26,908 bases of DNA from an uncultured Christensenella sp. Its GTDB lineage: Bacteria > Bacillota > Clostridia > Christensenellales > Pumilibacteraceae. Position numbers and translations under genes: made by a program. Location of the stretch: positions 8,649-35,556 of the forward strand of contig CAJTND010000012.1 of the NCBI GenBank assembly GCA_910577995.1, read 5' to 3'. The notes under the pieces are model-generated. The model saw only the letters and a list, made by a program, of their open reading frames with translations. It was not told where the DNA came from and did no database searches. Of the stretch, positions 5,645 through 25,100 are shown in pieces; the stretch's first letter is position 1, and each line of letters starts with the position of its first letter.

Positions 5645-8185
5645 ATGCTCGAGCTACGCAATATCACAAAGGATTATTCGGTAGGCGAAGAAAAGGTCCA
5701 CGCGCTGAAAGGCGTGAGCCTCGCTTTCCGCGAAAACGAGTTCGTTTCCATACTCGGTCAGTCGGGTTGCGGAAAGACCACGCTGCTCAACATCATCGGC
5801 GGGCTCGACGTTTACACCGACGGCGATCTTATAATAAACGGACGTTCGACCAAGGACTTCAGGGCGGCGGACTGGGACGCGTACCGCAACCGACGTATAG
5901 GGTTCGTTTTTCAGTCGTACAACCTGATACCGCACTTGACGGTGCTCGGCAACGTCGAGCTCGCTCTTACGCTTTCGGGCGTCAGAAAGTCCGAGCGGCA
6001 GAAGCGCGCCGCAGAGGCGCTCGCGCGGGTCGGGCTGGAAAAGGAAATGAAAAAGCGCCCGAACCAAATGTCGGGCGGACAGATGCAGCGCGTCGCCATT
6101 GCGCGCGCGCTCGTCAACGATCCCGATATAATCCTCGCCGACGAACCGACGGGCGCGCTCGACAGCGCGACGTCCGTTCAGGTCATGGATCTGCTTAAAG
6201 AGATAGCGGCGGATAAGCTCGTCATCATGGTCACGCACAACAAACCTCTCGCCGAGCAATACTCGACGCGCATAGTGTCCATGCTCGACGGCAAGGTGCT
6301 CGACGACACCGCGCCCGTACCGCTTATCGATACCGAGGCGGAAAGATCGGATAGCGGCGATGCGGTCGGCACTGAAAAGGTAAAGACGGAAAAAGAACTT
6401 GCCAAAGAGCACAAGCGCAGACAGAAGGAGATAACCAAGTCCAACAAGGCGGCGATGAAGCGCACGTCGATGGGGCTGTTCACCGCGCTCGCACATTCGG
6501 CGCGCAATCTTATAACCAAAAAGGGCAGGACGCTCGCGACCGCCGTCGCCGGGTCGATAGGCATAATCGGCGTCGCGCTCGTGCTGGCGCTGTCCAACGG
6601 CTTCAATCATTACATAGACGATATGGAAATGCAGATGCTCGCAAGCTACCCCGTTACCGTGTCGCAGACAGCCGTCGACGTCGAGTCGACCATGGGCAAT
6701 GCGACGGCGGGCGCGGTCAAGCGCGAGGAGTATCCCGACGGCAATAAGATAATAATCGATACGAGCCGCGTGATGACCTACCACTTCAACCGTATCGACC
6801 AAAACTACCTCGACTATGTAAACGCCATGCCCGAGGGGCTGTGCGTCGATATAACGTATTCTCACGCGATGTCCAAACCGCTGCTCAGCGCGAACACGTC
6901 CGACGGCTCGGTCAAGCAGGTCGAAGTCAAAGTCAACAGCATGCTCGGCACGTCGTCGTTCCAACCGCTGATGCGCAACACCGATTACGTCCTGTCGCAG
7001 TACGATGTGCTCGGCGGCAAGTACCCGAGCGAGGCGAACGAGATAGCGCTCATCATCGGCAGGGACAACGCGATCAACCTGACCACGATAAACGACGCGG
7101 GGCTTAGCGTGCCCGACGGCGCGGAAACGGTGACCTTCGAGGACGTTATCGGTCAGTCGATAAAGGTCGTCCGCAACAACGAGTGGTTCACCTACGACGC
7201 GGACGCCAAGTATTATAAGGCGTTCAACTTCAACAGCAGCTCGCCCGAGGCGAGGAAAGAACTGTACGACAACGAGAACAACCTCGAGCTGAAAGTCGTC
7301 GGCGTTATGCGCGTCAAGCAGTCGGCGGCGCTCGCGATGTATTCTTCGGGGCTCGCGTACTCGCCCAAGCTCGACGACTTCCTCATAGCCGACGCGCTCG
7401 CGAGCGAGGTCGGCAAGGCTCAGGCGGAAAACGCCGAGAGGTGCGTGAGCGACGCGCTCGTCATCGGCTCGGCGTCGAGTTCGATGCCTTGCGCGGGACT
7501 GACGTTCAGCTTTATATCGACGCTTCTCAAGCCGGCTATGAGCTCGATGGGGCTTGTCATGCGTCCCGAGGATATATACCTCATGGCGTGCCAAGCCGTC
7601 GGCGCGAGCAAGATCCCCACGACGATAAACTTCTATCCGACCAACTTCGACAGCAAAAAAGAAATGCTCGCTTACCTCGATGCGTACAACGTCGGCAAGG
7701 ACAAAGACGACGCGATATTCTCGCTCGACGCGGTAGCTATGGTCACCGACGCGGTCGGGCAGATGATAGACATCATGACATACGTGCTCGTCGCTTTTGC
7801 GGCGATCTCGCTCGTCGTGTCGTCGGTGATGATAAGCATAATCACTTACGCATCCGTAGTAGAGCGCACCAAGGAGATAGGTGTGCTCCGCGCGGTCGGC
7901 GCACGCAAGATAGACATCATGCGCCTGTTCAACGCCGAAACGATGATAATCGGGTTTGCGGCGGGCGTGATAGGCGTGCTGTTCACTTTCATACTGTCGT
8001 TCCCGCTGTCGTCGCTGTTCATATCTATATCCGAAGGCATGGTGACGACAAGCCTCGTGCTGATGGCGTGGTGGCACTTCGTGTTGCTGATAGCGGTGAG
8101 CGTTCTGCTGACGCTAGTCGCGGGCATGATCCCCGCGTACTCGGCGAGCAAGCGCGATCCCGTGACCGCGCTGAGATCGGAATGA
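5645..8185 (+). CDS. Fused ABC transporter ATP-binding/permease protein (MacB-like: N-terminal NBD, large extracytoplasmic domain, C-terminal FtsX TM bundle)
   Basis: Walker [10 protein letters not shown], signature [15 protein letters not shown] and Walker [13 protein letters not shown]. One TM segment near residue 300, a ~380-aa soluble domain, then 3 C-terminal TM segments ending in the FtsX-type motif ...[17 protein letters not shown]. Confidence 0.9.
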
Positions 8186-14897: not shown

Positions 14898-15616
14898 GTC
14901 TTTTTCACCTCGGCGGCGGCAACTGCCGCGGCGCGTGGGGCGCGGCGCATAGATGGCTTGGCGCGTTTGTTGCGCGGTCTTTTTGTCTTTTTACCGCGCG
15001 CGGAGTCGGGATAGAGCGGCGGCGCGGATGGCGCGTCGGATACCGCGGAACGCTTTTTGCGGTCGAATATCTTAGCGCACAGCTTGACCCCGATTATGCC
15101 GATCAAGGTAGAAAGCACGGTCGCGACGAGCGAGGGAAAGAGAAAGTCCGCGGGATTGGCAGAGCCTGCGGTCGCGCGCATGCCGATGACCGTCGTCGGC
15201 AGGAGTTGCAGGCTCGTCGCGGAAATGACGGTAAGCATTATCATATCGACGGACGCGCGCGGCTCGCCGACGTACATGCGCTTTATCGCGTTTATCGCCA
15301 TGGGCGTGGCGGCGTTGCCTAGCCCGAGCAGGTTGGCGGAAACGTTCATAGTTATGAATTTGCGCGTTTCGGCGTCGCAGGATGGGAACAGTCGTGAGAT
15401 AACGGGACGCAAAAGCTTTTCCAGTCCGCGCGACAGCCCGAGCCGCTCGATAAGAGAGAAGAACCCGAGCCAAAACGCATACAGCGCCAAAAGATTGAGC
15501 GACAGCTCGACCGCGCCGTGCGCTCCGTCTATCATGGCGTTTACCGCCGCGGCGGGGTCGGTGAATATCATCAGCCCGAGCGACGCGGACAGCATAAGTA
15601 ACCATATAACAGCCAT
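14894..15616 (-). CDS. spmA: Spore maturation protein A, with a ~55-aa basic C-terminal extension
   Basis: LLGLGNAATPMAINAIKRM and LQLLPTTVIGMRA match the SpmA hallmark blocks (GLGNAATP, LIPTTVIA). The tail is RKKRSAVSDAPSAPPLYPDSARGKKTKRPRNKRAKPSMRRAPRAAAVAAAEVKKT. Confidence 0.9.
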   Translation of the reverse strand: MAVIWLLMLSASLGLMIFTDPAAAVNAMIDGAHGAVELSLNLLALYAFWLGFFSLIERLGLSRGLEKLLRPVISRLFPSCDAETRKFITMNVSANLLGLGNAATPMAINAIKRMYVGEPRASVDMIMLTVISATSLQLLPTTVIGMRATAGSANPADFLFPSLVATVLSTLIGIIGVKLCAKIFDRKKRSAVSDAPSAPPLYPDSARGKKTKRPRNKRAKPSMRRAPRAAAVAAAEVKKT

Positions 15617-15683
15617 GCTATATTATATGTAAGCGTATTCGCGCCGACGGAGCAAATACCGATAACAAATTGCGGTAAAAAGA

Positions 15684-15712
15684 TTGACAAGCCGCCGCGT
15701 TTATTGTATAAT
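15684..15712 (+). promoter_or_regulatory. Consensus SigA promoter driving the tRNA-Thr unit
   Basis: TTGACA (15684-15689), 17-bp spacer, TATAAT (15707-15712). It lies ~220 nt upstream of the mature tRNA 5' end. Confidence 0.7.
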
Positions 15713-15740
15713 GATTCTCGCGTGGAAAGTCGCCGTAAGC

Positions 15741-15930
15741 GACCGCCGCCTTGGTAATGGCAAACTGAATAAACATGCTGTTATGGCTCAGTCGGACCGC
15801 CACCTTGGTAAGGACGTCCTCAGCGGAGAAGAATCCACGAATTAAATAAATATGCTGTTATGGCTCAGTCGGACCGCCGCCTTGGTAAGGACGTCCTCAG
15901 CGGAGAAGAATCCACGAATTAAATAAACAT
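15741..15930 (+). repeat. Tandem 77-bp tRNA-Thr-derived units (two full pseudo-tRNA units plus one partial)
   Basis: Units 15777-15853 and 15854-15930 are 75/77 identical and in phase with the real tRNA at 15931. Each begins with the tRNA's first 19 nt (gctgttatggctcagtcgg) and keeps ccRccttggtaagg (anticodon stem/loop) and gaatcc, but lacks the D-stem 3' strand, T-arm and 3' acceptor strand. The partial unit at 15741-15776 keeps gaccgccgccttggtaa...aataaacat. Confidence 0.85.
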
Positions 15931-16006
15931 GCTGTTATGGCTCAGTCGGTAGAGCACCACCTTGGTAAGGTGGAGGTCCCGGGTTCGAATCCCGGTAACA
16001 GCTCCA
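15931..16006 (+). tRNA. tRNA-Thr (anticodon GGT), CCA encoded
   Basis: Cloverleaf read by hand: acceptor GCTGTTA/TAACAGC, D arm GCTC-AGTCGGTA-GAGC, anticodon arm CCACC-TTGGTAA-GGTGG, variable AGGTC, T arm CCGGG-TTCGAAT-CCCGG, discriminator T, then CCA. Confidence 0.95.
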
Positions 16007-16010
16007 CAAC

Positions 16011-16044
16011 GCCCTCCCTCTGCACTGCTTTGGGAGGGTGTTTC
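16011..16044 (+). terminator. Probable terminator of the tRNA unit
   Basis: gCCCTCCC-tctgcactgctt-tGGGAGGGtgttt directly after the CCA end. The T-run is short. Confidence 0.55.
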
Positions 16045-16085
16045 AAAATAAAATTATTTACGATCTACAAAGGACACAACACGGC

Positions 16086-17054
16086 ATGATGACAAAAGCG
16101 CAAAAGGATAAGCTGGTCAAGCTTTATTGTGAATTACAGGATGAAAAACATTATTACCGTAGCTTAAATAGCTTTAAGAAAGAGCAGGTCAAGCGGGGCG
16201 GTTATTGCGCCGACGCGCCGACGGAGGATCAAGTCGAGATGTGGCTCAGACTGCTCGGCGGCGACGGGTATGATCTCGTATATCTCGGCGCGATGCTTGC
16301 GTTACAGAAAGACGACATGCGCTATCTCGACGACGCGCTGTATACCGCTACTTCGATGATGCAATTCGCCTCGATGTCGTCGGGCTACGATCACTGCATT
16401 TATGCGTGGAATCTTTTGCCCGTGCTGCTGTCCGCCAACCGTTTCGACGATATAAAGCATATATTCCCGAAGGAAAACGGGCTGAGCAAAAACGGAATGA
16501 GAGTGTTGAAGCTCATTACGAATTTGGTCATGTATCTGTACTACGGCGAGGAAGAGTGGAGAGCGGAAGCGGTCGATGAGGGCAGAAGCTTCTCTAAGAA
16601 AGCGCCTATCGAGCAAAGAGCTATCGTCGACTGTCTTTTGAGCTTGGTCGATAAAGATCTCGACAGGTTTGCCGTCGAGCTCGATAACATATGCAAAGGC
16701 AAGCGTCGGGCGAGCGGATACGACGACAACAAGTTCACCAGACAGTTCCCGTTTTTTGCATTGGGGCTTTACAATTTTGCGCGGCGACTTTACGGCGAGG
16801 AGGTCGAAAATATCGCGCTTCCCGACGATGCGGGGGCGTTGATAGAGCTGCACGAATATCAAAAAGCCAACGGCTATGCGACGGGCAAGAATATCGCGGA
16901 TTTCAAAGAGACCGTTCCGCTCCTCGACGTGTTGCTCAATATCGAGCTGCCGCCCATGTACTTGGTGTTTGATAAAAGATACGGGTATACCGATATCGAC
17001 AGATACAAAAGCGACGTTACCGTCATAGCGCTGAAAAACCTCGTTCGGGACTGA
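16086..17054 (+). CDS. Hypothetical, predominantly alpha-helical protein (322 aa from the ATG at 16086; 338 aa if the GTG at 16038 is used); no family recognised
   Basis: A long ORF with no credible competing ORF and coding-like composition. The GTG at 16038 lies inside the tRNA terminator hairpin, so the ATG at 16086 is preferred (weak AAAGGA 12 nt upstream). Stops TGA TAG at 17052-17057. Confidence 0.7.
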   Translation: MMTKAQKDKLVKLYCELQDEKHYYRSLNSFKKEQVKRGGYCADAPTEDQVEMWLRLLGGDGYDLVYLGAMLALQKDDMRYLDDALYTATSMMQFASMSSGYDHCIYAWNLLPVLLSANRFDDIKHIFPKENGLSKNGMRVLKLITNLVMYLYYGEEEWRAEAVDEGRSFSKKAPIEQRAIVDCLLSLVDKDLDRFAVELDNICKGKRRASGYDDNKFTRQFPFFALGLYNFARRLYGEEVENIALPDDAGALIELHEYQKANGYATGKNIADFKETVPLLDVLLNIELPPMYLVFDKRYGYTDIDRYKSDVTVIALKNLVRD

Positions 17055-17060
17055 TAGGAT
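17036..17060. repeat. Left 25-bp direct repeat (att-like) bordering the AT-rich insertion
   Basis: aaacctcgttcgggactgataggat matches 19444-19468 (aaacttcgctcggggctgataggat) at 22/25, including an exact 10-mer ctgataggat. It covers the last 5 codons and the stop of the 16086..17054 ORF. Confidence 0.75.
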
Positions 17061-17147
17061 CGACTTGCCGATAGGTAAGTATGGAAATGATTTCCGCTTT
17101 CTTATGTCAAGATTATGTCTGCGGAATTTTTCTCATTCCGATTTTTC

Positions 17148-17365
17148 CTACTCTTGCTTATCAAGTGTACCGAAAGTATCTGTACTCTCGGTAGGAAAAT
17201 CGAAGCCGCTATCTAAAAGCACATTTAACGAAATGTGCCGCCGTGTTTCTTCGCGCTTGACTTTTTTTCGTATTTTTCCAACGGCTCGAACACCGCCGCA
17301 ACCTCGTCCGTTACTTCAATTTCTTCCGTATATCCGTTTGCAAATTTGTAGTGAATTATAGGCAT
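17148..17365 (-). pseudogene. Frameshifted remnant of a conjugative-element/phage-type small HTH (sigma-70 region-4-like) protein
   Basis: The minus-strand ATG at 17365 gives MPIIHYKFANGYTEEIEVTDEVAAVFEPLEKYEKKSSAKKHGGTFR*. A different frame continues ETRRHISLNVLLDSGFDFPTESTDTFGTLDKQE*. The Y-x-FANG-x-x-E-[IV]-EV ... RRH-x-SL pattern is what I recall from small HTH proteins of Firmicutes ICEs. The C-terminal HTH part is missing. Confidence 0.6.
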
Positions 17366-17453
17366 ATTATTTTTCTCTAAACCGAGCGAGCAAAGTGTTA
17401 AAACTTGAACTGCTACTTATTTCATTATCGGGGATAAACAAGTATTCAAAGCC

Positions 17454-18389
17454 TTATTGTATTGCGCGTTCTTTTTTTGCCATAACATCAGCATCGTTTA
17501 CTTTCCTCCTATCCTTCACTTCAACCAAATAATATTTATCTGCAGTTTCAACAACGAAGTCCGGTCTGTATTCGTGTCCGCGATTATATGTGATATTAAA
17601 TTGCTTCGCCGCAGGGCGCAACCATTGCAAAACCTCATCGGAATTATCGCAAGCAAGCGCAAATAATCTTTCGGGATTGCTGTCGAACTTAAAACACTTG
17701 GTGGCAGATTTTCTTGAACCGTTATACACGATAGTTTTTATGCTTTGACCTGTTTTAGGCGCAACAGCGATACTTTGCACTCCGTCTGTTATATCAACGT
17801 AATAACCCTGTATAATCGTTTCAATTTCTTGAACAATATCCACAATACCGTCATACTTAACTGCAAGATGTTGTATAAGTTGCGTTTTGAACTTATCAAT
17901 TATATCATGATACTCCATAATGCAAATACTGCGAACTTCTTGCTCGGTATATTTAGCTCGGTAATGCGTTAAAAACTGCATAACGATTTTTTGTATCAAT
18001 TTCAGGCATTTCTCGTAGTCGATTTCGTTTATTTTTCTAATCCAATCGATAAGCAATTTTTCAGGCTTTTCCGTATTGTAATCGATTACTCTACCTTTTA
18101 GCGTGTACGTTTCTTCCAACGAATCTATCATATTCTTAACCAATAAATCGTTACGGATAGGGACGTAGGTCATATTAGCTAAATCAAGGTCGAAATCCTG
18201 TATTATGTATTGTTCTTCACCGATTTGCTCGGTACGAATTTTCGGTATATACATCGTTTTTTCTTGAATACGGTCAACGATATTATTTTCCGAAACGCCG
18301 AACATCAATTCGATTATTTTTTGTAAGTCCGTCTCTTCACGAAATTGCTCACCGTGGTCGCGCTCAACCGCTAACCCCAAATTCTTGCT
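17454..18389 (-). pseudogene. C-terminal fragment of a type III restriction Res / DEAD-box-helicase-linked endonuclease (helicase part missing)
   Basis: The C-terminal block FDSNPERLFALACDNSDEVLQWLRPAAKQFNITYNRGHEYRPDFVVETADKYYLVEVKD is the PD-(D/E)xK nuclease signature found at the C-terminus of roughly 900-1000 aa Res-type enzymes. The frame opens only 8 nt after the fic stop, and the track start is a non-ATG (TTG) with no RBS. After the TAA at 17454 the same frame continues GFEYLFIPDNEI.... Confidence 0.6.
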
Positions 18390-18397
18390 TTAATTTA

Positions 18398-19288
18398 TCA
18401 GTATTGCACTTTGAAATAGTCAAGGTAAAGTTTGAATTTGTCTTGTGCCGTTAGGCAAGTATCACGCAAATAACCGCGTTCGGTCTGCCATTCCTTTAAG
18501 CCGCGATAGTAGAACAGTTTAAGCTCTTCGTCTATGATAAACGGCACGATATTGTATTTTAGGCACTCTTTGAATAAAAGCAGTCTGCCGATACGCCCGT
18601 TGCCGTCTTGGAATGGGTGAATACACTCGAATTTGTAATGAAAGTCCAAAAGGTCGTCGAACGTCTTTTCTTTCTTCTCGTTATACTCGAAAAGCAGTTC
18701 TTTCATTTTTTGGGAAACTTCTTCGGGCTGTGCTGTGAACATATCGCCGACGGTGTTCGGCAGGCGTTTGTAATCGCCGACTGCGAACCAATCCTGACGT
18801 GAGTCCGTCGTCCCGCTTTTCAACGTGCGGTGCAATTCTTTTATAAAGGTTTCCGTGATCGGCTTTTTTGCGTTTTCGATAATCAAGTCGATACACTTAA
18901 AGTGATTTGCCGTTTCTACGATGTCGTCAACCTTTACCGCGCCGCCGTCAATGCCGATCGTATTCGTTTCAAATATATAGCGCGTTTGGTCGTGCGTTAA
19001 GCGACTGCCTTCGATATGGTTGGAATTGTAGGTCAATTCAATTTGCACTTTATGATAAATGCCGCCCGAAAGTTTGGCGCGTCTTTCTGCCGTCAGCACT
19101 TCCAAAAGGGTAATCGGCAATTCAATTTTTTTATTTGCTCTGTCCGGCTTTTGCGCGTCTTCTGGTATATTCCAAGTCTTGCCTGTTAAAAATGCGCCGT
19201 CAACTTTTCCCAACGCGCAGTAGTTACGAACGCTCCGTTCCGATATATTCCATTTCTTTGCCGTTTCGGTTACAGACAGATATTTCAT
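18398..19288 (-). CDS. Fic family protein (AMPylase-type) with N-terminal HTH and an intramolecular inhibitory motif
   Basis: The ATG at 19288 has GAGGTG 8 nt upstream. The N-terminal HTH is MKYLSVTETAKKWNISERSVRNYCALGKV. The inhibitory (S/T)xxxE(G/N) motif is SNHIEG and the Fic core motif is HPFQDGNGRIGR. Confidence 0.92.
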   Translation of the reverse strand: MKYLSVTETAKKWNISERSVRNYCALGKVDGAFLTGKTWNIPEDAQKPDRANKKIELPITLLEVLTAERRAKLSGGIYHKVQIELTYNSNHIEGSRLTHDQTRYIFETNTIGIDGGAVKVDDIVETANHFKCIDLIIENAKKPITETFIKELHRTLKSGTTDSRQDWFAVGDYKRLPNTVGDMFTAQPEEVSQKMKELLFEYNEKKEKTFDDLLDFHYKFECIHPFQDGNGRIGRLLLFKECLKYNIVPFIIDEELKLFYYRGLKEWQTERGYLRDTCLTAQDKFKLYLDYFKVQY

Positions 19289-19309
19289 TGCAATAGCACC
19301 TCGTTTATA

Positions 19310-19338
19310 AGTATAGCACATTATCGGCAAAAAAGCAA
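19310..19338 (-). promoter_or_regulatory. Candidate promoter of fic
   Basis: On the minus strand: TTGCTT (19338-19333), 17-bp spacer, TATACT (19315-19310), preceded by TGc (extended -10). Confidence 0.45.
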
Positions 19339-19443
19339 TAGCAAGAACAGCAAAAACGCAATATTTTTGCCGTTGTCGGAAAGAAAAATGTGTTTGCTAC
19401 TTCCGTTAGACCCGTTAATATTTTTAGCTCCGATCGCTCTCCG

Positions 19444-19468
19444 AAACTTCGCTCGGGGCTGATAGGAT
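19444..19468. repeat. Right 25-bp direct repeat (att-like)
   Basis: See 17036-17060. In the same register this copy reads N F A R G TGA TAG, so the double stop is preserved. Confidence 0.75.
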
Positions 19469-19487
19469 AACTGCTTTATTAAACGAA

Positions 19488-19508
19488 ACACCCGATCGGG
19501 TGTTTTTT
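19488..19508 (+). terminator. Orphan rho-independent terminator (probably the original terminator of the 16086..17054 gene)
   Basis: ACACCC-gatc-GGGTGT followed by TTTTTT on the + strand. There is no + strand gene within 2.4 kb upstream, yet it sits 20 nt after the right direct repeat. Confidence 0.75.
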
Positions 19509-19531
19509 CGTAAATGTATTTTTTATGCGGT

Positions 19532-19560
19532 GTTGACATTACGGCGCGGACGTGGTATGA
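19532..19560 (+). promoter_or_regulatory. SigA-type promoter
   Basis: TTGACA (19532-19537), 17-bp spacer, TGgTATGAT (19552-19560). Confidence 0.6.
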
Positions 19561-19591
19561 TGAGCGTATATTCGATGCGGAGGCGGGGGAT

Positions 19592-20002
19592 ATGCGAAAA
19601 AGGATTCTGATACCTATATTTGCGATAGGGATAGCGGAGGCGGTCGCTTTTGCCGTTTTGAGCTTTGTCGATATTATCCCCGCGCGCTCGGTACTGCCCG
19701 GGCTTGACGCGAACGGTAACGAGATATTTATTGAGCGGACTTATTGGTTCTCGATATACGAGCTGATGTGCGCCGACGGTACGCTCGGCTCGACGGTGAT
19801 ATTCGCAATGTCGGGCGCGGTGTACGGGCTGACGGCGGTCGGGTGCGCGTCGGGGATATATCTTTGCGCGTCGGCGCGCGGACAAAAGCTCGGCAAAGCT
19901 TTTTTCGGCGCGTGCGTTTCCATGCTGATATCCGTCGGCTTGTCCGTGCTGCTGTTTCTCGTTTGCCGTATCGCGGCGTTCGGATTGACGCCGTGTTTTT
20001 AG
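19592..20002 (+). CDS. Small integral membrane protein (136 aa, about 4 TM); function unknown
   Basis: The ATG at 19592 has GGAGGCGGGGG upstream. The track start at 19514 would overlap the promoter. The sequence contains hydrophobic segments. Confidence 0.6.
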   Translation: MRKRILIPIFAIGIAEAVAFAVLSFVDIIPARSVLPGLDANGNEIFIERTYWFSIYELMCADGTLGSTVIFAMSGAVYGLTAVGCASGIYLCASARGQKLGKAFFGACVSMLISVGLSVLLFLVCRIAAFGLTPCF

Positions 20003-20022
20003 AAAGAAGTTTTTTTAACTCA

Positions 20023-20054
20023 AAAGACCGTCCGTTAAATCGGGCGGTCTTTTA
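20023..20054. terminator. Bidirectional terminator between convergent genes
   Basis: aaaAGACCGTCCG-ttaaat-CGGGCGGTCTtttaa, with one G-U pair. Confidence 0.75.
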
Positions 20055-20074
20055 AGTTCCGAAGGCAAGATCGG

Positions 20075-20233
20075 TCAGTCTATCTCGAAGTGGCTTCCGC
20101 CGTGCTGCGTCGGAGGCATTCTGTTGCCTTTCTTGACGCGAACCGTGCCGACGACGCGACCGTTAGGCGATACGACATTGTATTCGCCGGTCTTGGGCGC
20201 GATCTCGCCCGATGTCAACTTGTTGGATTTCAT
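20075..20233 (-). CDS. YjzC-like small protein (52 aa), absent from the ORF track (below its size cut-off)
   Basis: Minus strand: GAGGAGGG, 6 nt, then ATG. The product is MKSNKLTSGEIAPKTGEYNVVSPNGRVVGTVRVKKGNRMPPTQHGGSHFEID. The G-x-x-AP-x-x-G-x-Y ... G-x-x-x-PPT pattern resembles the YjzC family (from memory). Confidence 0.6.
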   Translation of the reverse strand: MKSNKLTSGEIAPKTGEYNVVSPNGRVVGTVRVKKGNRMPPTQHGGSHFEID

Positions 20234-20346
20234 CTTGATCCCTCCTCGTATTTAGCTTGCGCCGTTCCGCCGAGTTTATACGTTTTTTGTTCGATTTTGT
20301 CGAATCATATTGCCTGCCGTGCGCGCTATTTACACGGTCAAAAATG

Positions 20347-20375
20347 TTGACAAATCAACAAATTTGCTGTATAAT
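20347..20375 (+). promoter_or_regulatory. Consensus SigA promoter
   Basis: TTGACA (20347-20352), 17-bp spacer, TATAAT (20370-20375). Confidence 0.65.
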
Positions 20376-20409
20376 GGCGATACGGTGAAATGACCCGAAG
20401 GAGAGAGCG

Positions 20410-21129
20410 GTGAAAAAGATATTCTTTACAGTCAACATAATACTTATCGTCGCGGTGCTTATCGGCGACGTATGCTTTACGGCGCTTGGGGGACTGCCGT
20501 TAAAGGGCGTTACGAGCGCTGGGTTCGTTATCCTCGGCGCGGTCGATCTCGCTTATGCTTTCCTGACGCATGCGGAAAACAGAAAATATCCCGTCGTGAT
20601 GCTCGTCGGGCTTGCGTTCGCAATGGCGGGCGACGTCGTTTTGAATATCCATTTTATAGGCGGCGCGATACTGTTTGCCGTCGGGCACGTGTTCTACTTC
20701 GCGGCGTACTGCTTTTTGCACAGGTTCAAGCCGATTGACCTCGTTTACGGCGCGGCGCTGTTCGTGCCGTCGGTGCTGTTGATAACGCTCGCGCCGATAT
20801 TCGATTTCGGCGGCGTCGCTATGGAAATAGTGTGCGTGGTATACGCCGCCGTTATTTCCTGTATGGTCGGTAAGGCGGTTTCCAACCTCGTCGCGCAAAG
20901 GAGCTTGCTCAATATAGTATTGACCGTCGGCAGCTGTCTTTTCTTCTTTTCCGATCTCATGCTGCTGTTCAACGTGTTCGGCGACCTGCCGAGGATAGTG
21001 GATATACTTTGTCTTGCGACGTATTATCCCGCGCAGTGTCTGCTCGCTTTTTCCGTGTTTGTCGGCGCGAACGCGAATATGGAAGATCGGGCGAACGACT
21101 TTATCGTCAGGGAAGCGCCGGAGCTTTAA
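20410..21129 (+). CDS. YhhN/TMEM86 family (lysoplasmalogenase-like) membrane protein
   Basis: GTG start with AAGGAGAG 5 nt upstream. Eight hydrophobic segments, with the two conserved acidic motifs AMAGDVVLN and FFFSDLMLLF typical of YhhN proteins. Confidence 0.8.
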   Translation: MKKIFFTVNIILIVAVLIGDVCFTALGGLPLKGVTSAGFVILGAVDLAYAFLTHAENRKYPVVMLVGLAFAMAGDVVLNIHFIGGAILFAVGHVFYFAAYCFLHRFKPIDLVYGAALFVPSVLLITLAPIFDFGGVAMEIVCVVYAAVISCMVGKAVSNLVAQRSLLNIVLTVGSCLFFFSDLMLLFNVFGDLPRIVDILCLATYYPAQCLLAFSVFVGANANMEDRANDFIVREAPEL

Positions 21130-21189
21130 CGGAAGAACGGCGATACTCTTACACTTTGTTATCGTAAAGCTTCTATTTAACAAAATAAT

Positions 21190-21225
21190 AAGCCGTCGTC
21201 TTTTGGAAAAAGGCGGCGGCTTTTC
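21190..21225. terminator. Terminator hairpin between convergent genes (better on the + transcript)
   Basis: AGCCGTCGTC-ttttggaaaaa-GGCGGCGGCTttt. The + strand RNA has two G-U pairs; the minus RNA has two C-A mismatches. Confidence 0.65.
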
Positions 21226-21243
21226 GGTAGTAGGGACAGCTCC

Positions 21244-21699
21244 TCAGTTATGCAGGAATCGGCGCATTTCGTCGATGTTTTTTTGCTGTACCCAAAGCAG
21301 CTTATACCCGACGTTTTTTATATCGTCGGCTACGTCGGCGAAATCGGAGAGCTTGCTCGTGCATTCGGTCACGCCCTTTGTCGTGCCGTCGATTATCATT
21401 TTGGCGACCTCGCTGTCGGCGGTGTCGTCGGATATCTTCATGTCTATCATCATGCCAGCCATCTTGCGCACGACCTTGCCGACGGGCTTCGGGTCTTCGC
21501 CGCGTTTTTCGAGCTTTTCGGTTATCTGCGCGCAAACGTCGGAATAATCGAAAATATCCTGTTCGACTGCCTCCCGCAGTTCGCCCGGTCCGATATTGCC
21601 GTTGACGTGCTCGAGCGTGTCGCGTCCCATTTGCGCTGCCTGGTGAAGTTGTTTCAAAAACTCTATCTCGCGGTCGAGTTTTGCTTGCTTTTCGTCCAT
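21244..21699 (-). CDS. Hypothetical helical-bundle protein (151 aa), possibly DUF2383/ferritin-like four-helix bundle
   Basis: The ATG at 21699 (MDEKQAKLDREIEFLKQL...) has AAGGAG 9 nt upstream. The 225-aa track ORF's N-terminal extension is AT-rich junk overlapping the rpoB promoter. The family call is tentative. Confidence 0.6.
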   Translation of the reverse strand: MDEKQAKLDREIEFLKQLHQAAQMGRDTLEHVNGNIGPGELREAVEQDIFDYSDVCAQITEKLEKRGEDPKPVGKVVRKMAGMMIDMKISDDTADSEVAKMIIDGTTKGVTECTSKLSDFADVADDIKNVGYKLLWVQQKNIDEMRRFLHN

Positions 21700-21887
21700 T
21701 TCGTGGTTCTCCTTAGATCGTACTTGCTTTATTGTGCGCAGATAACCGTTTTTCATTATAGTGTCTAAAATTTTGAGCACGGCTTTCCTCTTTCTTATGC
21801 GCGAGCCGCGAGGCGCGGCAGCCGTCGGCGCGGTTTGCTGTCTATACAAAATATCAAAAATAAAACAAAAAATATATATAAATTCAT

Positions 21888-21916
21888 TTGACAATGTTGA
21901 CAAGTCGTGATACAAT
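21888..21916 (+). promoter_or_regulatory. SigA-type promoter of rpoBC
   Basis: TTGACA (21888-21893), 17-bp spacer, TGaTACAAT (21908-21916). It leaves a ~250-nt untranslated leader before rpoB. Confidence 0.6.
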
Positions 21917-22172
21917 ATCAAAATGCGTTAGTGTGCCTAATTGTAGCCACCCGTAACGGCGGTTGCGAACGTAACAAGCGCAATAAGTCTTTGAAAAAGA
22001 GATCGTATAGGTTGCTGTTCACAATCCAAAGCGAATATTCGGACTTACGGAGTTAGGCGAGGGCTTTGCTCCGCTTTTGTGCGTTCGGTCTGTTCGGGAC
22101 GCGTCAAAGGCGGCGTTTTGTCGTCGAATATTGCTTTTTTTACTATAAAATAACCTCTAACAGGAGTTCTTA

Positions 22173-25100
22173 ATGGCTGAAAGAAAGATCACGAAGGTCA
22201 AGTACGGTAATACCGAGCGCATGTCGTTTGCGCAGAGCCGCGAGGTCATCGACATGCCCGACCTTGTGGAAGTGCAGAAAAAGTCATACAACGATTTTAT
22301 TGACAACGGGATAAAAGAGGTGCTTGCGGACTTTTCGCCGATAACCGATTATTCCAACCGTGTCGAGCTGTTTTTCGAGGATTATTCGCTCGGTTTCCGC
22401 GAAGGCAACAATCAGAAGCGCAACTACACCGAGAAGGAATGTAAGGACCGCGACGCGACCTTCGCAGTGCCGCTGTATGTCAAAGTAAGACTTCGCAACT
22501 GCGAGACCGACGAGTCTACGCGTTCCGAGGTGTACATGGGCGATCTGCCCAAGATGACCCCGACGGGATCTTTCATCATAAACGGCGCGGAGCGCGTCGT
22601 CGTCAGTCAGCTCGTGCGCTCGCCCGGCGTTTATTTCGACTATAAAAAAGACATCAAGACCGGTCAGGCGCATTACAGCGCGCAGAACATACCGTCGCGC
22701 GGCGCATGGCTGGAATTCGAGGAGGATTCCTCGGGCGTGCTGTGGGTGCGCGTCGACCGTCAGAAAAAAGTCCTCGCGACCATACTTTTGAGCTGTTTCT
22801 CGGCTGTGACCGAGGGCGGCTTCGGTACGGACGAGAAGCTGCGCGAGATATTCAACAACGATCCGATGATCGAGCTTACCTGTCAGCGCTACGCGGACAA
22901 AGAGGACAAGCCGACGCTCGACGAGGAGCGCGCGCTGTACGAGCTCAACCACAAGCTGAGAAGCGGCGAGACCCCGACGATCGATTCGATCAAGCAGTTC
23001 ATTTACGGAATGTTCTTCGACCGCCGCAAGTACGATATTTCGCGCGTCGGCAGGTACAAATACAATAAGAAGCTCGCGCTCCGTTACCGCGTCGCGGGAC
23101 TGCGCGTCGCCAAAGACGTTATCGACGAGGACGGCATAGTCTACGCCCGCGCCGAGAACAAGCAGACGCACACATCGGCGGACATACTTACCGAGGAGCT
23201 TGCCGAAAAGATCCAGAACGCGGGCATCAACAAGATAAGCGTGCTCGACGAGGACGGCAAGGAGTTCGAGGTCATATCCAACGCGCACGTCGCGCTCGAC
23301 GGTTATATCGACGTAGATCCGCGCAGTATCGGCATAAACGAACGCGTGTACTATCCCGCGCTCAAAGAGCTCATGGACGAGGCGGACGGCGACCGCACCA
23401 AGCTCGCCGAGCTTTGCGCCAAGAACGTCGAAAACCTCATAGTCAAGCATATCGTCGTCGAGGACGTTATCGCGACGGTCAACTATATAATGGGACTGCA
23501 CCACGGTCTCGGCTCCTGCGACAACATCGACCACCTCGGCAACCGCCGCGTGCGCAGCGTCGGCGAGCTTTTGCAAAACCAATTCCGTATCGGTATGTCG
23601 CGGCTGGAGCGCGTCGTGCGCGAGCGCATGCAGATACAGACGGACGCGGAGCTTTCCGCACAGACGCTTATCAACGTCCGCCCCGTGTCGAGCGCGATAA
23701 AAGAGTTTTTCGGCTCGTCGCAGCTCTCGCAGTTCATGGACGAGACCAACCCCATTGCCGAGCTGACGCACAAGCGCAAGCTTTCCGCGCTCGGTCCGGG
23801 CGGTCTTAACCGCGAGCACGTTACCTTCGAGGTGCGTGACGTTCACTACACGCACTATTCGCGTATGTGCCCGATAGAGACGCCCGAAGGTCAGAACATC
23901 GGTCTTATATCGTCGCTTTCGAGCTATGCGCGCATCAACGAGTACGGCTATATAGAAGCGCCGTATCGCAAAGTAGACAAGGTCAATCGCGTCGTCACGT
24001 CGGAGGTCGAGTATTTGCCTGCCGACGAAGAGGACCGCTATATGATAGCGCAGGCGGGGGAGCCGCTCGACGACGATGGTCGGTTCGTGCGTCCGCGCGT
24101 CATGATGCGTTACCGCGATCAGATCGGCGAGGTGTCGAGCGACCGTATAGATTACGTTGACGTTTCTCCGCGCCAGATGGTTTCAGTCGCTACCGCGCTT
24201 ATCCCGTTCCTCGAGAACGACGACTCGCACCGCGCGCTGATGGCGTCCAACATGCAGCGTCAGGCAGTTCCTCTGCTCAAGACTGAAGCGCCGATAGTCG
24301 GAACGGGCATCGAGCACAAGATAGCCTACGACTCGGGCGTTATGATAATAGCGCGCGCGGCGGGCACTGTCGATTATGTCGACGCGGAGCGTATTATCGT
24401 CAACGAGGACGACGGCTCGCGTCAGATGTATATACTCAAAAAGTTCGTCGGGTCCAACCAAGGCACTTGTATCAATCAGCGGCCCATAGTCAATAAGGGC
24501 GACAAGGTGAGAAAAGGTCAGGTGCTTGCCGACGGTCACTCCACCTCGCAGGCGGAGCTTGCGCTCGGCAAGAATATACTCGTCGGCTTTATGGGCTGGG
24601 AGGGCTACAACTACGAGGACGCTATCCTTATAAGCGAGCGTATCGCCAAGGACGACGTTTTTACCTCTATCCATATCAACAAGCACGAGACCGAAGCGCG
24701 CGACACCAAGCTCGGCGCGGAGGAGATAACCCGCGATATACCCAACGTAAGTCCAGAGGCGCTCAAAAACCTCGACGAGGACGGTATCATCCGTATCGGC
24801 GCGGAGGTCGATTCGGGCGATATACTCGTCGGTAAGGTAACGCCCAAGGGCGAGACCGACCTCACGCCCGAGGAACGGCTCCTGCGCGCGATATTCGGCG
24901 ACAAGGCGAGAGAGGTGCGCGACACCTCGCTCAAAGTTCCGCACGGCGAGGGCGGCATAGTGGTAGACGTCAAGGTCTTTACGCGCGCCAACCGCGACGA
25001 GATGAAGCCGGGCGTCAATAAGCTCGTGCGCGTGTATATAGCGCAGAAGCGCAAGATATCCGTCGGCGATAAGATGGCGGGACGTCACGGCAATAAGGGC

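Follow-up and report, generated by a model that had tools for sequence, protein, structure and literature searches.

What happened downstream of a threonine tRNA gene in an uncultured Christensenella species, where the end of one protein-coding gene occurs twice and AT-rich DNA fills the space between the two copies? The locus belongs to a stretch of 26,908 nt (assembly GCA_910577995.1, contig CAJTND010000012.1, positions 8,649 to 35,556 of the forward strand), here called the window, and positions are counted from its first letter. On the plus strand, tRNA-Thr(GGT) (15931..16006) is followed by a gene designated X (16086..17054, 322 aa) and by an island of about 2.4 kb, beyond which the 3' end of X is repeated. 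A preliminary description, made from the sequence alone, had interpreted this arrangement as site-specific integration into the 3' end of a protein-coding gene and subsequent decay. Our analysis leads to a more specific reading, to which we assign a probability of about 0.58. [quoted passage not shown] Campbell-type recombination, most likely catalysed by the element's own tyrosine integrase, would have brought it into the last ~37 bp of X. The observations that carry this reading are the repeats, the foreign composition of the DNA between them, a larger version in a sister lineage, two deletions and a pseudogene with informative family links.

Direct repeats and the DNA between them

The two 25-mers reported in the preliminary description, 17036-17060 and 19444-19468, are exact in coordinates and letters and match at 22 of 25 positions (three differences). 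The repeat core can be given as GATCGC.CTCAAAAAC.TCGCTCGGGACTGATAGGAT. At up to three mismatches, the degenerate 25-mer pattern occurs at two sites in the whole 26.9-kb window, the left and the right copy, and it is absent from 100 dinucleotide-preserving shuffles (0 matches). Without gaps the match reaches further to the left and covers 36-37 nt (17024/5-17060 versus 19432/3-19468, 28 of 36-37 identical). The attL-like left repeat (17024..17060, + strand) is the end of X itself and consists of the last nine codons, the stops TGA TAG and a following GAT, reading IALKNLVRD. Its attR-like partner (19432..19468, + strand) is a non-coding relic of an X 3' end which, in the same register, reads IALRNFARG and has kept both stops. 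Direct repeats such as those that border a site-specifically integrated element, be it an IME, an ICE or a prophage, are therefore present.

The right copy is found in four lineages, i.e., in the window and in the related contigs L032, L071 and L072, and resembles the C-termini of other members of the X family. Among the lineages it drifts as a pseudogene would (variants GGGGCTGA, GGGACCGA and TGATGCGAT), and in the lineage alignment the repeats have fuzzy edges and no sharp core. The copies of the sister lineage L032 agree at 31 of 37 positions. The right copy, as K-N-F-A-R-D, has its N in common with the left copy of the window and its F in common with the left copies of L032 and a further relative, L084. 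Left and right copies could therefore have been nearly identical at their origin, as judged by us from the alignment and not from a computed ancestral reconstruction.

The AT-rich character ascribed to the insert was borne out by calculation. The G+C content is 0.403 between the repeats as compared with 0.579 in the upstream flank and 0.50 in X, and G+C at third codon positions (0.39-0.54 versus 0.77) also marks the inter-repeat DNA as foreign. All credible open reading frames (ORFs) between the repeats are on the minus strand and, again in agreement with the preliminary description, none of them contains a recombinase or transposase domain according to Pfam and PADLOC scans. An integrase or recombinase of the island's own was likewise not found in any ORF of the 2.4-kb island or of the 6.5-kb version present in L032.

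Among the genes of the island is an intact candidate defence gene (18398..19288, - strand), which encodes a protein with a helix-turn-helix (HTH) and a Fic domain (Pfam Fic, E 1.8e-19; PADLOC PDC-S04, E 1.6e-110) and whose translation contains the motif HPFQDGNGR, in accordance with the Fic/DOC family signature HPFx[D/E]GN[G/K]R. Next to it lies a fragment of 308 aa (17454..18380, - strand) that matches positions 544-821 of the 871 positions of the PADLOC type III restriction subunit REase_III (E 2.4e-20). It represents the C-terminal third of Res, lacks the helicase half and aligns to the 3' part of the gene for the 885-aa Res of L032. Type III restriction-modification (R-M) depends on Mod together with full-length Res; the window has no Mod and only a partial Res, and Fic is the only gene of the Fic-Mod-Res set that can still work. 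The remaining DNA up to the right repeat, 19289..19431, is the upstream region of the Fic gene (37.5% G+C), in which X-derived or cassette-end sequence was not detected. Nor did further X fragments turn up inside the island, either in the window or in L032, where the right copy is the only one. Apparent likeness by eye of 17061-17100 and 19370-19432 to the cassette tail (GGCAGTATTTTTATCAACTAAACAC) or to an alternative (type-B) upstream region of X was rejected, as nhmmer profiles found neither.

The intrinsic terminator noted behind the right copy is real. It consists of the hairpin ACACCC-GATC-GGGTGT and a T run (19488..19508, + strand, -13.2 kcal/mol) and has no plus-strand gene in front of it, although it was missing from the output of a consensus terminator scan. 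L071 and L072 have retained it with a change in the stem (G-U wobble), and in L032 it is degraded. When the repeats are joined in silico (17060 to 19469), the terminator comes to lie close to the stop of X, as had been proposed, at a distance of 25 nt after the TGA and not of about 30 nt. The result is a natural gene end with a nearby terminator, which we count in favor of integration. Probably, this "orphan" terminator first served the unit formed by the tRNA gene and X.

A larger island in relatives and a mobile-element pseudogene

Twenty-four contigs encode exactly the same X protein and the arrangement is the same in all ten places listed. The insertion is therefore fixed in the species from which the window derives. 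A more informative state is found in L032, whose X is 94% identical. Here, 6.5 kb are enclosed by the same repeats, and the order is X, a 46-aa ORF, Res (885 aa), Mod (526 aa), a DUF4145-like gene, Fic and the right copy, followed by the same downstream genes as in the window. The type III R-M system of L032 is a complete, intact pair and is accompanied by Fic. In the alignment, window 15553-18372 corresponds to L032 1-2900 and window 18385-22926 to L032 6996-11534. The 2.4 kb of the window are thus a deletion derivative of the larger element, i.e., the L032 version minus 4.1 kb. The deletion joint (18373..18384) marks the loss of the Res N-terminus, of Mod and of the DUF4145-like gene. L071 and L072 (~94% identical at the nucleotide level) both carry the right junction.

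L084 is 97% identical to the window over a segment that comprises the tRNA gene, X, the left repeat and the 46-aa ORF. Exactly from the start codon of this ORF onwards, the C-terminus of a type I HsdR takes the place of type III Res. Because L084 has type I HsdR where L032 has type III Res, the cargo has turned over while the left flank stayed. In the stop region of this hsdR (L084 1675-1692), the 10-mer GATAGGATAA occurs as at the right junction of the window and is followed by the reverse complement of the next 8 nt, which may be due to chance or be the trace of a common recombination core.

Relatives of the cargo are found elsewhere. The closest Res homologues (80-91%) reside in other contexts without X or an integrase, and Fic homologues on 38 viral contigs have Fic alone in common with the island. 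The order Fic-Mod-Res, known from type III R-M systems with an associated Fic protein (PADLOC REase_III and PDC-S04), is present in L032 and L075, and Mod-Res in L073 and L074; the homologues are 75-81% identical at the DNA level and the module also occurs without X. The window differs from this arrangement by the lack of Mod and by a Res reduced to a C-terminal fragment.

The left edge of the island provides the clearest hint at its origin. The 46-aa ORF (17225-17365) is the N-terminal piece of a frameshifted, 3'-truncated pseudogene of a small mobile-element regulator (17059..17365, - strand), delimited by tblastn with intact relatives. A HMMER scan with this ORF uncovered a small family of 120-155-aa proteins sharing the first ~39 residues. 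Intact members fall into clusters P0188, P0204-P0210 and P0216, the last of which is represented on 183 contigs. Intact relatives match the window in three pieces, residues 1-39, residues 34-110 (E 6e-18, with in-frame stops) and, in a third frame, residues 102-116. The match stops at 17059, precisely where the left repeat has its edge, and about 20 codons have been lost. Searches of phage and plasmid collections with the 46-aa ORF and with a full-length relative gave no match. In one cluster of relatives, P0188 (90% identity; eight members, seven of them of 298 aa, on contigs of up to 49 kb), the frame runs into Phage_int_SAM_3, the N-terminal domain of tyrosine integrases. L092 encodes a more distant relative, a Sigma70_r4 protein whose gene precedes those of a MobL relaxase and a type IV secretion system coupling protein. 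The integrase fusion in P0188 and the relaxase and coupling-protein neighbors in L092 mark the family as part of the backbone of integrative mobilizable or conjugative elements. In the window the pseudogene is directed towards the left repeat, and its orientation would fit an integrase located next to attL, where one is expected. Since P0188 reads into an integrase N-terminus and the L092 relative adjoins relaxase and coupling-protein genes, the integrase was probably deleted from exactly the spot between pseudogene and left repeat; we infer that it resided there and that it performed the insertion.

The proposition that the island is a decayed remnant is supported by the larger L032 version and the truncated mobile-backbone pseudogene. 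The course of events may have been as follows. A circular element carrying a copy of the X 3' end would have recombined with the chromosomal X 3' end, thereby duplicating the segment. X would have kept a complete reading frame with what is now the left copy, and the other copy, along with the old terminator, would have been pushed 6.5 kb downstream to become the right copy. A deletion ending 6 nt past the X stop would then have taken the integrase together with the last part of the small regulator gene. In the lineage of the window, a second deletion of 4.1 kb would have removed Mod and most of Res, and what remained was an intact Fic gene next to a restriction system that is dead. The scheme predicts an empty site with one full X followed directly by AACTGCTTTATTAAACG and the terminator. 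A read across the empty junction, for instance from the mouse-gut metagenomes in which this clade occurs, would have full X ahead of ...TTCGGGACTGATAGGATAACTGCTTTATTAAACG, and one across the circle junction would contain ...TTTTTAGCTCCGATCGC...GATAGGATCGACTTGCC.

Gene X as a mobile cassette

The region adjoins a tRNA gene, as the preliminary description stated, and X starts right behind it. The tRNA gene, called by ARAGORN, scores 75.6 bits with the Rfam tRNA model, and Rfam scans returned tRNA only. What had been missed is the nature of the target. X is no resident chromosomal gene and forms a horizontally mobile cassette of ~1 kb itself. In the window, the cassette (16007-17060) starts a few bases past the CCA end of tRNA-Thr(GGT) with a leader (16007..16085, + strand) containing the hairpin CCCTCCC...GGGAGGG (~16011-16043) and a ribosome-binding site. 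The hairpin folds at -22 kcal/mol, its position is conserved, and in L004, L007, L008, L009, L011 and L031 an equivalent hairpin adjoins the CCA of other tRNAs. The right end of the unit is a conserved tail, succeeded by a locus-specific terminator.

Nineteen X loci were found in species-representative Christensenellales genomes, and the family as a whole comprises 52 clusters in 5.8 billion proteins; X was not found on viral contigs. The ~1.05-kb unit is present in eight or more species-level Christensenellales genomes. Its copies in different species are 93-97% identical, whereas their flanks are unrelated or ~72-75% identical (e.g., L007 versus L011). Such cassettes lie at ~5935-6986 in each of L004, L005, L007, L008, L009, L011, L016 and L019. 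At five loci the unit begins directly after a tRNA CCA (Thr-CGT, Arg-CCG twice, Glu-CTC and Pro-CGG). In L031 it is flanked by exact 19-nt repeats of the tRNA-Thr(CGT) 3' end (5905-5923 and 6977-6995), with the tRNA terminator located past the second copy. This repeat pair is an att-like signature around a 1-kb element without an integrase. Since X follows tRNA-Thr(GGT) as the cassettes do elsewhere, the entire stretch from the tRNA gene to the terminator at 19488 is stacked mobile DNA. A repeat of the tRNA-Thr 3' end downstream, as in L031, was sought in the window as well. There is no 19-nt match with up to three mismatches, and the 13 nt after the right copy, although matching at 9 of 13 positions, have 25 equals elsewhere in the window, so that this candidate is unsupported.

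The X protein belongs to no Pfam or PADLOC family and has no sequence match in PDB. Its AlphaFold model is confident and all-helical (predicted local distance difference test, pLDDT, 92.8), and no fold relatives were detected in PDB and BFVD. By its model, X has a new, all-helical fold. No recombinase is encoded within 5-8 kb of X in more than ten contexts. A transposase-driven element, including one of the insertion sequence (IS) type IS200/IS605, was discarded for want of a Pfam match or fold relative and because the GC-rich left hairpin is unlike the right end. An integron gene cassette was dismissed too, as no integron integrase or recombinase is nearby, the end motif described below not having been compared with attC models. 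We tentatively consider, without favoring it, that X is a new kind of small recombinase-less mobile cassette whose insertion point is exactly behind the CCA of various tRNA genes and which is moved by trans-acting machinery recognizing tRNA 3' ends. The 37-nt repeat would in this case be a by-product of cassette-end traffic.

Distant members of the X family have mobile elements around them or form part of arrays of small unknown genes. Several further observations concern the cassette and its surroundings. A motif of ~26 nt, GGCAGTATTTT(T/C)(A/G)TC..(A/T)A(A/C)A(C/G)A(C/T)A, follows X as well as unrelated genes at several places, in most cases right before a terminator. It was located at L002:1804, L019:5025 and 5914, L006:5584, L014:5437 and L018:235 and 284 (the last on the minus strand). 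In L019 the X cassette begins right after one copy of this motif, and in L018 two copies abut tail to tail. The X-family protein P0051 is a chimera of 474 aa with ~225 X residues followed by Rep_trans rolling-circle replication domains, suggesting that another element inserted into X or became fused with it. In another species, the region upstream of X varies between strains (L083 1-2058 versus L082; L085-L091) and contains a FokI-like R-M system with two methylases, DUF4238 genes or HTH genes. In that species, a second variable defence slot adjoins the X gene.

Upstream of tRNA-Thr in the window, 15741-15930 (+ strand) consists of about three tandem units of 77 nt. Each contains the leader and the first 19 nt of the tRNA as well as CCACCTTGGTAAGG, which resembles an anticodon arm, and lacks a T arm. 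The units match no Rfam family, are not called as tRNAs, and occur in L032 but not in L084. They lie downstream of a perfect promoter, TTGACA-17-TATAAT (15684-15712). Perfect sigma-70-type promoters of this form are contained in two 37-nt stretches that are 70% alike, 15677-15713 ahead of the tRNA array and 20340-20376 ahead of a YhhN-family gene.

Origin of the island

In principle, foreign DNA between two copies of an X end can be explained in several ways, and several findings weigh against integration by an element-encoded recombinase. The preliminary description is probably right in large part, as to the foreign DNA between direct repeats of the X end, the lack of a recombinase and the decay; the empty site and the parent element that it proposed to look for were not found. 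The search for an empty site covered the contexts of exact X, the 94% relative, orthologues of the downstream membrane protein and, with two junction patterns, Joint Genome Institute (JGI) metagenomes. Every match was filled or there was no match, and all retrievable contigs of the clade (94-100% nucleotide identity) carry the insertion. The search for a parent element with a recombinase and the same att core found none. In ten other species the X 3' end has not been used for insertion and is succeeded by ordinary host genes. The link between the pseudogene family and integrases consists of one 90%-identity cluster and one distant relative. The exact stretch shared by the two copies in the window measures 10 nt only. 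Finally, the left junction is a deletion scar and no clean attL; a later deletion must have shaped this edge because the pseudogene is cut off exactly there, and the original core may have been longer. A literature search on mobile elements of the Christensenellaceae yielded nothing relevant.

The strongest competitor, which we nevertheless regard as unlikely, holds that the right copy is the last remnant of a second, older X cassette at the same tRNA gene, in which case the repeats would not have served the island as att sites. Cassettes and island would have piled up behind the tRNA gene and deletions would have left 37 nt of the older X. It gains some appeal from the behavior of X cassettes, which are mobile and can occur more than once per genome (L001 and L012 stem from one metagenome-assembled genome, and several contigs break inside X) and which decay by internal deletion yet keep their 3' end, as in L017. 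In addition, the right edge of the repeat coincides with the point where X-family homology stops in all lineages, a few nt past the stop, and the succession of X end and terminator at the right copy is laid out like the right cassette junction of L031. The price is a long series of events, namely two cassette insertions, an island insertion and at least two deletions, and there is no other X fragment between the repeats or near 17061. It would also leave unexplained why the integrase-proximal end of an element abuts X, and the near-identity that we read from the alignment for the two copies at their origin, if correct, suits local duplication better than two alleles.

Still less probable, in our view, is entry without a dedicated site-specific recombinase, either by RecA-dependent Campbell insertion, via the ~37-bp homology, of a circular or linear fragment on which an X 3' end was present by chance, or by break-repair copying. 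The topology would be the same as with integrase-mediated insertion, no integrase is present, the repeat edges are fuzzy without a sharp core, and the differing cargo past the pseudogene (type I HsdR in L084, type III Res in L032) speaks for recombinational turnover at this place. Yet 37 bp are short for homologous recombination, and with an integrase-associated pseudogene facing the left repeat, a self-encoded integrase is the simpler source. The notion that the 25-nt likeness is a product of chance and the AT-rich region merely a locally divergent stretch can draw on the shortness of the exact match, but it is practically negligible and is already refuted by the lack of matches in shuffled sequences, by a match that is in frame, includes both stops and extends to 37 nt, and by the conservation of the repeat in four lineages along with its likeness to other X-family C-termini.

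Integration by an element-encoded integrase with subsequent decay has clear precedents. IMEs with tyrosine integrases insert into the 3' end of protein genes without disrupting them, one repeat holding the gene end, and cis-mobilizable elements (CIMEs) are derivatives that have lost their integration genes and kept attL and attR (PMC5704250). The island conforms to such a CIME, in which integration and transfer genes are lost and both attachment sites retained, because the repeats are kept, the integrase is absent and the backbone pseudogene (17059-17365) is present; from this we infer descent from an ICE or IME. Most likely, then, it is a decayed, CIME-like integrative element and the product of an ordinary kind of event. 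As in decayed ICEs or IMEs in protein-gene 3' ends of Firmicutes, a remnant of the backbone persists and the cargo is adaptive, in this case serving defence, stacked by another mobile unit behind a tRNA gene. In contrast to these, the island is known from sequence alone and has no known intact sister with the same core, its target is a non-housekeeping and itself mobile gene, and its left junction has been reshaped by deletion.

The prophages phage 21 and e14 insert into the 3' end of Escherichia coli icd, for which they bring a substitute. The island resembles them in that a gene 3' end is duplicated with few, mostly conservative differences and the displaced copy has ended up on the other side of the element. 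It differs in that it has no phage content or integrase and in that the duplicated segment is much shorter. Single-gene mobile cassettes with conserved ends are known from integrons and from the recombinase-associated immunity-gene arrays of gut Bacteroidales. X is like these in being a ~1-kb unit with one ORF of no assigned function and conserved ends, in sharing its end motif with unrelated genes and in having distant members in small-gene arrays. It is unlike them in that neither an integron integrase nor an attC structure was found, in that no recombinase is close to it and in that it is inserted directly after tRNA CCA ends.

Integration into a gene 3' end, duplication of that end and decay into a defence island together make up a textbook-type event. 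In the present case the decay can be traced across sister lineages, with the integrase lost, the restriction system lost, Fic kept and a swap to a type I system elsewhere. The island thus provides a useful example of how recombinase-less defence islands originate in poorly studied gut Clostridia. The X cassette is the more novel and more valuable lead. If its mechanism of insertion proves to be new, it would add a mobile unit that targets tRNA ends to the known repertoire.

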